DNA of 64,000 nt from Escherichia coli (lineage in GTDB: Bacteria; Pseudomonadota; Gammaproteobacteria; Enterobacterales; Enterobacteriaceae), in NCBI RefSeq assembly GCF_003334405.1, contig NZ_QOWM01000002.1. One strand, 5' to 3'. The translations under genes and the position numbers were made by a program. Of this stretch, positions 50,816-52,697 are shown piece by piece (position 1 is the first letter of the stretch; each line of letters begins with the position of its first letter). Below the pieces are notes generated by a model. It was not told the origin of the DNA, searched no databases, and was given only the letters and a program-made list of their open reading frames with translations.

Positions 50816-52697
50816 ATTCGAAACCACTTTTGCAGATCTGGGCCTGAAGGCTCCTATCCTTGAAGCCCTTAACGATCTGGGTTACGAAAAACCATCTCCA
50901 ATTCAGGCAGAGTGTATTCCACATCTGCTGAATGGCCGCGACGTTCTGGGTATGGCCCAGACGGGGAGCGGAAAAACTGCAGCATTCTCTTTACCTCTGT
51001 TGCAGAATCTTGATCCTGAGCTGAAAGCACCACAGATTCTGGTGCTGGCACCGACCCGCGAACTGGCGGTACAGGTTGCTGAAGCAATGACGGATTTCTC
51101 TAAACACATGCGCGGCGTAAATGTGGTTGCTCTGTACGGCGGCCAGCGTTATGACGTGCAATTACGCGCCCTGCGTCAGGGGCCGCAGATCGTTGTCGGT
51201 ACTCCGGGCCGTCTGCTGGACCACCTGAAACGTGGCACTCTGGACCTCTCTAAACTGAGCGGTCTGGTTCTGGATGAAGCTGACGAAATGCTGCGCATGG
51301 GCTTCATCGAAGACGTTGAAACCATTATGGCGCAGATCCCGGAAGGTCATCAGACCGCTCTGTTCTCTGCAACCATGCCGGAAGCGATTCGTCGCATTAC
51401 CCGCCGCTTTATGAAAGAGCCGCAGGAAGTGCGCATTCAGTCCAGCGTGACTACCCGTCCTGACATCAGCCAGAGCTACTGGACTGTCTGGGGTATGCGC
51501 AAAAACGAAGCACTGGTACGTTTCCTGGAAGCGGAAGATTTTGATGCGGCGATTATCTTCGTTCGTACCAAAAACGCGACTCTGGAAGTGGCTGAAGCTC
51601 TTGAGCGTAACGGCTACAACAGCGCCGCGCTGAACGGTGACATGAACCAGGCGCTGCGTGAACAGACACTGGAACGCCTGAAAGATGGTCGTCTGGACAT
51701 CCTGATTGCGACCGACGTTGCAGCCCGTGGCCTGGACGTTGAGCGTATCAGCCTGGTAGTTAACTACGATATCCCGATGGATTCTGAGTCTTACGTTCAC
51801 CGTATCGGTCGTACCGGTCGTGCGGGTCGTGCTGGCCGCGCGCTGCTGTTCGTTGAGAACCGCGAGCGTCGTCTGCTGCGCAACATTGAACGTACTATGA
51901 AGCTGACTATTCCGGAAGTAGAACTGCCGAACGCAGAACTGCTAGGCAAACGCCGTCTGGAAAAATTCGCCGCTAAAGTACAGCAGCAGCTGGAAAGCAG
52001 CGATCTGGATCAATACCGCGCACTGCTGAGCAAAATTCAGCCGACTGCTGAAGGTGAAGAGCTGGATCTCGAAACTCTGGCTGCGGCACTGCTGAAAATG
52101 GCACAGGGTGAACGTACTCTGATCGTACCGCCAGATGCGCCGATGCGTCCGAAACGTGAATTCCGTGACCGTGATGACCGTGGTCCGCGCGATCGTAACG
52201 ACCGTGGCCCGCGTGGTGACCGTGAAGATCGTCCGCGTCGTGAACGTCGTGATGTTGGCGATATGCAGCTGTACCGCATTGAAGTGGGCCGCGATGATGG
52301 TGTTGAAGTTCGTCATATCGTTGGTGCGATTGCTAACGAAGGCGACATCAGCAGCCGTTACATTGGTAACATCAAGCTGTTTGCTTCTCACTCCACCATC
52401 GAACTGCCGAAAGGTATGCCGGGTGAAGTGCTGCAACACTTTACGCGCACTCGCATTCTCAACAAGCCGATGAACATGCAGTTACTGGGCGATGCACAGC
52501 CGCATACTGGCGGTGAGCGTCGTGGCGGTGGTCGTGGTTTCGGTGGCGAACGTCGTGAAGGCGGTCGTAACTTCAGCGGTGAACGCCGTGAAGGTGGCCG
52601 TGGTGATGGTCGTCGTTTTAGCGGCGAACGTCGTGAAGGCCGCGCTCCGCGTCGTGATGATTCTACCGGTCGTCGTCGTTTCGGTGGTGATGCGTAA
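50808..52697 (+). CDS. deaD: ATP-dependent DEAD-box RNA helicase DeaD (CsdA)
   Basis: Track ORF 50742..52697; ATG at 50808 gives 629 aa [13 protein letters not shown]...; motifs [25 protein letters not shown]; RG-rich C-terminus. Confidence 0.95.

Follow-up and report, generated by a model that had tools for sequence, protein, structure and literature searches.

The deaD gene and its arginine- and glycine-rich tail

The stretch of Escherichia coli DNA analyzed here (the window, 64,000 nt) carries on its plus strand deaD (csdA), the gene of a cold-shock RNA helicase of the DEAD-box type. The 629-residue product begins with MAEFETTF and scores 1397.5 bits against the NCBIfam equivalog NF008642 (cut-off 989), with residues 1-629 lying on profile positions 1-628. 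The 501 nt spanning the tail region match E. coli K-12 MG1655 with 100% identity, and the original prediction had named the gene correctly. Pfam domains follow in the order DEAD (30-196), Helicase_C (232-340), DeaD_dimer (374-443), DbpA (489-558) and DeaD_C (568-629), which is the DeaD/CsdA arrangement of DEAD, Helicase_C, dimerization domain, DbpA-type RNA-binding domain (RBD) and tail. E. coli DeaD/CsdA is UniProt P0A9P6. The locus is single-copy in 5,426 of 5,426 complete E. coli genomes and is annotated as deaD in every match, and its downstream neighbor is mtr in the RefSeq genomes inspected. The intrinsic terminator of deaD folds with -22.7 kcal/mol (z = -3.25). Rfam returned no RNA family in or beside the tail region, and there was no hint of an RNA-level element there. 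Upstream of the start codon, the deaD reading frame stays open as far as a TTG at 50742. The main features are as follows.

50808..52697, plus strand: deaD (csdA) coding sequence, 1,890 nt, 629 aa plus stop (ORF list, translation and family profiles).
52137..52247, plus strand: Arg/Asp-rich linker, aa 444-480, between the dimerization domain and the RBD; a second low-complexity, length-variable segment.
52248..52499, plus strand: DbpA-type RNA-binding domain, aa 481-564, folded (PDB 5B88; Pfam DbpA), ending just before the tail.
52500..52694, plus strand: Arg/Gly-rich, predicted disordered C-terminal tail, aa 565-629, 65 codons (composition, PF12343).
52740..52771, plus strand: deaD intrinsic terminator, a 9-bp GC-rich hairpin (52740-52764) followed by a T-run (terminator scan).

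The tail contains 20 Gly, 19 Arg, 7 Glu, 4 Asp and 4 Phe, amounting to 60% Arg+Gly and a net charge of +8. It matches the Pfam family PF12343, DeaD_C ("C-terminal disordered region"), over aa 568-629 with E = 9.2e-12 and 45.6 bits, covering model positions 1-62 of 62. The solved structures of DeaD (PDB IDs: 5GJU, 5GI4 and 5B88) cover aa 6-210, 218-445 and 481-564 only, and no PDB chain spans the tail. An AlphaFold2 model of aa 374-629 was built on a shallow alignment of 30 species and is of low overall confidence (mean pLDDT 49.6). It shows helices in the dimerization domain and a strand/helix alternation in the RBD, both at pLDDT 55-74, whereas no secondary structure appears in the linker at pLDDT 36-49 and the tail contains no DSSP elements (aa 568-629) at pLDDT 31-39. 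Intrinsic disorder of the tail is thus predicted and agrees with its absence from all solved constructs; because of the low overall confidence of the model, we regard it as supported rather than proven.

Within the tail, four units of the type GERR(E/G)G can be parsed, with the degenerate consensus GERR(E/G)GGR..F(G/S). The GERR motifs start at aa 569, 580, 591 and 606 (nt 52512, 52545, 52578 and 52623), and are spaced by 11, 11 and 15 residues (33, 33 and 45 nt). Tandem Repeats Finder (TRF) reports a 33-nt period at 52510-52604 with 2.9 copies, 70% matches and a score of 99. The units are listed below.

52509..52541, plus strand: repeat unit 1, 11 aa (unit parsing, TRF array).
52542..52574, plus strand: repeat unit 2, 11 aa (unit parsing, TRF array).
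52575..52619, plus strand: repeat unit 3, 15 aa (unit parsing, TRF array).
52620..52694, plus strand: unit 4, truncated to SGERREGR, followed by the APRRDD module and by RRRFGGDA at the terminus (unit parsing).

The original prediction had described reiterated RG-rich units, near-tandem over roughly 65 codons. The peptide it quoted is present and the tail does comprise 65 codons, but GERR-type units fill only about 45 of them (52506-52640); the final 18 codons form a separate module made of APRRDD and the terminal RRRFGGDA. We considered whether the periodicity might be a chance product of the biased Arg/Gly/Glu composition and codon usage, with no true repeat behind it. A strict DNA lag-identity test against codon shuffles would allow this, being not significant (416 of 5,000 shuffles reach the observed value), as would the modest TRF result of 2.9 copies at 70% identity. 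The lag test fails, however, because the spacing of the units is uneven and because they differ at synonymous positions (GGT/GGC, GAA/GAG, CGT/CGC). In the protein, none of 20,000 composition-preserving shuffles of the tail reaches four copies of GERR, the longest exactly recurring peptide is the 8-residue GERREGGR (shuffle mean 4.2), and identity at a lag of 11 residues reaches p ~0.02 against shuffles. The tail also holds an 18-nt exact DNA repeat, GERR-type units are found two to five times in the tails of 80 species, and indels amount to whole units. A chance origin is therefore very unlikely. The periodicity on which the prediction depended exceeds chance in the protein and falls short of significance in the strict DNA test: recurrence goes beyond composition and is conserved in relatives, and the repeat is real but old, degenerate and unevenly spaced, better visible at the level of motif and peptide than of DNA.

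Two further open reading frames overlap the tail.

52492..52707, plus strand: Val-rich ORF of 71 aa in an alternative frame, shifted by +1 relative to deaD (ORF list).
52388..52720, minus strand: antisense ORF, 110 aa, Pro/Arg/Ser-rich (ORF list).

That frames of 71 and 110 codons stay open could point to a real overlapping gene. Such openness is, however, expected from runs of CGT, GGT and GAA codons. Of the 19 tail Arg codons, 17 are CGT and all are CGT or CGC, Gly is written as GGT or GGC at each of its 20 positions, and with this usage no stops arise in one shifted frame or on the antisense strand. The substitutions point the same way, since third codon positions of the deaD frame take 6 of 7 changes between K-12 and O157:H7, 6 of 9 between K-12 and E. 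whittamii and 19 of 24 between K-12 and Salmonella diarizonae. Both putative translations are of low complexity, and in the nine RefSeq genomes inspected nothing but deaD and mtr is annotated across this stretch. We consider an overlapping gene extremely unlikely, and both ORFs, which had been called false in the original prediction and lie exactly where it placed them, are best read from the codon and substitution patterns as by-products of CGT/GGT codon runs.

Conservation of the tail across species

A protein search with an RBD-plus-tail query returned almost solely fragments shorter than 260 aa and was replaced by a scan of genome contigs and a search of cluster representatives. The scan covered Enterobacterales with one genome per species and gave 80 loci, 30 of which were aligned (alignment A2). 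The tail is present in all 80, with a length of 52-96 aa (median 71) and an R+G fraction of 0.46-0.62. Counting the K-12 sequence of the window, which belongs to the four-unit class, 2, 3, 4 or 5 GERR-type units occur in 8, 23, 40 and 10 of 81 tails, respectively. The exact peptide GERREGGR is kept in 66 of the 80 species, and the APRRDD module, counted as PRR[DE][DE], occurs in zero to three copies per tail. Across the 30 aligned species, the RBD contains no gaps and hardly varies; gaps fall only in the linker (aa 444-480), which ranges from 28 to 56 aa across the 80 species, and in the tail, and they come as repeat-sized blocks. In these comparisons, the tail keeps its composition (about 50-60% R+G, net positive) over a roughly two-fold range of length across Enterobacterales. 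The terminal RRRFGGDA is nearly invariant, with R250, R251, F252, D255 and A256 (A2 numbering) invariant among the 30 aligned species; in other Enterobacterales the terminal motif reads RRRDA, RRRPTEA and similar.

For more distant relatives we took the 150 top-ranking representatives of clusters at 50% identity, setting aside an E. coli DeaD fragment. An RBD was found in 133 of these 150, and in 103 of the 133 it is followed by a tail of 20 aa or more (median 57 aa). All 103 distant tails are net positive, with a median R+K of 0.31. GERREGGR occurs in none of the 103, and several carry their own unrelated repeats. Basic, low-complexity tails are thus general in this helicase subfamily, and the GERREGGR repeat is their enterobacterial form.

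Length alleles within E. coli

Alleles of different length were first noticed as unequal match lengths in a spread sample of matches, whose sequences were then fetched. For counts, junction-specific queries were run against the 5,426 complete E. coli genomes, the E-value limit being so strict that a junction had to be matched over its full length to pass. At least 231 of these genomes (4.3%) carry in-frame indel alleles of the tail; this is a lower bound, as five junctions were queried and the search is not a full census of length. A 221-nt query gives a less complete picture: its "<80% covered" band holds 6 genomes and so undercounts the deletion alleles, of which the junction queries find 23, while the +15 allele is concealed in its ≥99% identity band as two joined pieces. 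The alleles are as follows.

+12 nt: REGG duplicated (+4 aa), 158 genomes.
+15 nt: GGERR duplicated (+5 aa), 49 genomes.
+30 nt: GGERR unit present three times (+10 aa), 1 genome.
-78 nt: loss of 26 aa, giving a 603-aa DeaD, 21 genomes.
-132 nt: loss of 44 aa, giving a 585-aa DeaD, 2 genomes.

PGAP gives the DeaD lacking 44 aa a more generic product name.

All five alleles have end-points that match exact direct repeats of 5-18 nt in the reference, and the spacing of these repeats is the one required (12, 15, 78 or 132 nt).

52545..52562 and 52623..52640, plus strand: 18-nt exact direct repeat GGCGAACGTCGTGAAGGC, 78 nt apart, end-points of the -78 allele.
52517..52524 and 52649..52656, plus strand: 8-nt direct repeat GCGTCGTG, 132 nt apart, end-points of the -132 allele.
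52508..52530 (starts 52508 and 52523), plus strand: two copies of TGGCGGTG, 15 nt apart, framing the 15-nt unit CGGTGAGCGTCGTGG.
52552..52568 (starts 52552 and 52564), plus strand: two copies of GTCGT, 12 nt apart, framing the 12-nt unit duplicated in the +12 allele.

The unit CGGTGAGCGTCGTGG is duplicated in the +15 allele and triplicated in the +30 allele. As the +30 allele sits on the same flanking haplotype as the +15 allele, it looks to be derived from it. The -78 allele was found on three flanking SNP haplotypes, which suggests either recurrence or recombination. End-points bounded by repeats in this way carry what we read as the signature of slipped-strand mispairing (replication slippage) or of recombination at short homologies. 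Because the direct repeats encode peptide repeats that are in phase with one another, their spacing is a multiple of three and the products remain in frame; with the in-frame outcome built in, no appeal to selection is needed to account for it.

The length polymorphism expected in the original prediction is therefore real, as seen in the five in-frame alleles within E. coli and in the tails of unequal length across the 80 related species. Comparison of DeaD C-terminal length across E. coli, which had been proposed as the check, shows that the length is not invariant but also that variation is uncommon. We asked whether the tract could be a fast-switching contingency locus, akin to phase variation, that tunes or switches DeaD. 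The indels do recur, to judge from the -78 nt allele with its three haplotypes, and the apparent descent of +30 from +15 within one haplotype would also fit such a locus. Yet about 95.7% of the 5,426 genomes were matched by none of the five junction queries (again, not a full length census), the units are just 70% alike, and every change is in frame, so that nothing is switched off. Most variant genomes, moreover, carry one or the other of two alleles, with identical junctions among the matches listed, as if these were inherited. With at least 4.3% of genomes varying, by five alleles that all keep the frame, and units so divergent, the tract does not have the properties of a contingency or phase-variable locus, and we hold that explanation to be highly improbable. 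The polymorphism of tail length is of low frequency, not hypervariable, and ordinary.

A related idea is that tail length acts as a selectable "rheostat", in which recurrent, repeat-bounded indels alter the avidity of DeaD for RNA or its threshold for condensation. We think this improbable; if it were true, cold growth, ribosome assembly or persister formation would shift between E. coli lineages. Candidates for such an effect are the -26 aa allele, with its three haplotypes, as well as the alleles of +4 aa and +5 aa, which are fixed in clinical lineages.

Comparison with known systems and a possible role of the tail

Our comparison with the curated PF12343 region of E. coli DeaD/CsdA found no difference: the tail is that region. 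An RGG/RG box, as reportedly defined by Thandapani et al. in 2013, requires two or more RGG, or else three RG, with 0-4 residues between them. RGG occurs once and RG three times in the DeaD tail, which scores 0 for Tri-RGG, 0 for Di-RGG, 0 for Tri-RG and 1 for Di-RG; a canonical RGG box was accordingly rejected. The tail satisfies only the weakest (Di-RG) definition and is RG-rich by composition. The DeaD tail is not known to undergo arginine methylation, a modification by which eukaryotic RGG boxes are regulated. RhlE cores are not known to contain the dimerization and DbpA domains of DeaD.

Several helicases nonetheless carry comparable extensions. The RGG/RG (GAR) domains of Dbp2, Ded1 (PMC8373067), LAF-1 and DDX4 resemble the DeaD tail in being Arg/Gly-rich, disordered and furnished with aromatics (Phe in DeaD), in being appended to a DEAD-box core and in being linked to RNA binding and condensates. 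In contrast to these eukaryotic domains, 11 of the 65 residues of the DeaD tail are Glu or Asp, making it a mixed-charge RE/RG tract. The basic tails of Mss116p and CYT-19 are, like that of DeaD, unstructured positive extensions placed after folded domains, and are proposed to tether RNA without specificity and to favor annealing (PMC3590231). They have no sequence relationship to the DeaD tail and no GERREGGR units, and in DeaD the tail is preceded by a dimerization domain and by an RBD of RRM-like type. The C-terminal intrinsically disordered regions (IDRs) of the RhlE family (Pseudomonas aeruginosa RhlE1 and RhlE2) are likewise lineage-specific, fast-evolving basic IDRs on bacterial DEAD-box helicases, and modulate RNA binding, phase separation and specificity according to PMC11260450; RhlE belongs to another helicase subfamily and its tail has another sequence.

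For CsdA itself, PMC3590231 proposes the highly positively charged C-terminal domain as the seat of ATP-independent annealing and RNA tethering. C-terminal extensions are put forward in PMC1616957 as a secondary site of RNA binding. In the summary of Xu 2017 given by PMC11850223, RNA is anchored mainly by the RBD, and a construct lacking the tail retains activity. Purified full-length DeaD undergoes phase separation in vitro that depends on protein and salt, and it assembles into condensates in cells (PMC12758526).

By analogy with these systems, non-specific tethering and annealing of RNA, together with help in forming condensates, is the most likely function of the tail. The proposed arrangement would be as follows. 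A predicted disordered tail follows the folded DbpA-type RBD and is built of degenerate in-phase repeats, the APRRDD module and RRRFGGDA; segments between direct repeats of 5-18 nt are gained or lost, with codon phase keeping the DeaD products in frame. Drawing on the literature, the basic and flexible tail would serve as a polycationic RNA tether, unspecific for sequence, that raises the local affinity for RNA, and would support ATP-independent strand annealing; multivalent contacts of its Arg residues with RNA and with Phe may help DeaD condensates to form. The RBD would then provide specificity and the core would provide catalysis, and the number of repeats would set the length and valency of the tail. 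Taken jointly, the known disordered tail of DeaD, its degenerate repeats, their change in length between direct repeats and a putative role as RNA tether and in condensates make up a reading that we consider highly probable. The natural isolates without 26 or 44 of the tail residues imply that most of the repeats are not essential for viability.

The end of the tail may be a case of its own. The near-invariance of RRRFGGDA suggests a specific contact, one that a purely non-specific tether would not explain, and the terminal RRRFGGDA may be a separate short linear motif. It could be argued from this motif, nearly invariant while the remainder of the tail is fluid, that the tail serves chiefly for specific protein docking or for stability, for instance through a short linear motif at its C-terminal end for a partner or protease, rather than as an RNA tether. 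However, the literature examined names no partner of the tail segment, the terminal motif changes to the shorter and altered forms noted above in other Enterobacterales, and most of the tail keeps its composition rather than its sequence, as fits charge-driven binding of RNA. We judge a mainly docking role unlikely, and such a role could in any case coexist with tethering.

The tail of DeaD is already known and is ordinary: it has its own curated Pfam family, and the helicase is among the bacterial ones studied best. What is added here is only the series of alleles with their counts and the exact end-points at the bounding repeats, and beyond housekeeping the importance of the finding is slight. 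Annotators should disregard the ORFs at 52492..52707 (plus strand) and 52388..52720 (minus strand), and differences in DeaD length from -44 to +10 aa are to be taken as genuine in-frame alleles, and not as assembly errors or pseudogenes. The natural series (-44, -26, +4, +5 and +10 aa) offers ready variants for probing the tail in RNA binding, condensates and cold adaptation.

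The -78 nt allele and the naming of the shortest product

The -78 nt deaD allele, an in-frame loss of 26 aa from the Arg/Gly-rich tail of the helicase, is carried on three differing flanking SNP haplotypes, at loci L086, L088, and L089 (E. coli EC0026B, SCEC020001, and TW10722, respectively), and its products are covered by two protein accessions. This distribution suggests either recurrent deletion at the 18-nt direct repeat that bounds the lost segment or recombination. The shorter -44 aa DeaD, the product of the -132 nt tail allele, bears the generic RefSeq name 'DEAD/DEAH family ATP-dependent RNA helicase' rather than 'ATP-dependent RNA helicase DeaD', both in E. 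coli FXCREC035 (L003) and in FXCREC004 (H146); we assume that its score falls under the naming threshold.

Linker and extreme C-terminus of DeaD

DeaD has two low-complexity segments, namely the tail and an Arg/Asp-rich linker, and the tail itself closes with a distinct octapeptide:

52137-52247, + strand: Arg/Asp-rich linker, aa 444-480, low-complexity, with a near-repeat of residues inside
52671-52694, + strand: RRRFGGDA, the final eight deaD codons, near-invariant end of the tail

The linker, which is predicted to be disordered, varies from 28 to 56 aa across 80 species, and gaps in the species alignment concentrate there as well as in the tail. Among 30 Enterobacteriaceae the RRRFGGDA end is near-invariant while the remaining tail is fluid; in more distant genera it is replaced by RRRDA or RRRPTEA. 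RRRFGGDA may be a short linear motif for some partner.

Surroundings of deaD

Eight Rfam matches elsewhere in the window fit the known K-12 neighborhood 5' of deaD:

7984-8091, - strand: ArcZ
29736-29857, + strand: greA leader
36510-36593, + strand: tRNA
40379-40452, + strand: tRNA
40544-40644, + strand: rimP leader
45343-45413, + strand: naRNA4
46926-47040, + strand: S15 leader
47270-47441, - strand: SraG

The deaD frame is open for a further 22 codons 5' of the accepted ATG, to a TTG (50742-50807, + strand), giving an ORF of 651 aa; the NCBIfam profile alignment begins at residue 1 of the 629-aa form. Between the stop codon and the terminator lies a sigma-70-like hexamer pair, TGAACA-17-AATAAT (9/12; 52705-52733, + strand), which is probably a chance match. 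The deaD 3' end was found at 5,427 places in 5,426 complete E. coli genomes, and a plasmid of one complete genome bears an extra copy.

Repeats in the tails of distant homologs

Four distant DeaD-like homologs (P0227, P0270, P0143, and P0196), drawn from 50%-identity cluster representatives, have tails after the RNA-binding domain with tandem repeats of their own, unrelated to the E. coli units; examples from distant DeaD-like tails are (GGGGGGYRGRDD)n and (DRERPQRPRPFADSAQSS)n. Basic tails built from repeats seem to have originated repeatedly within the DeaD helicase subfamily.
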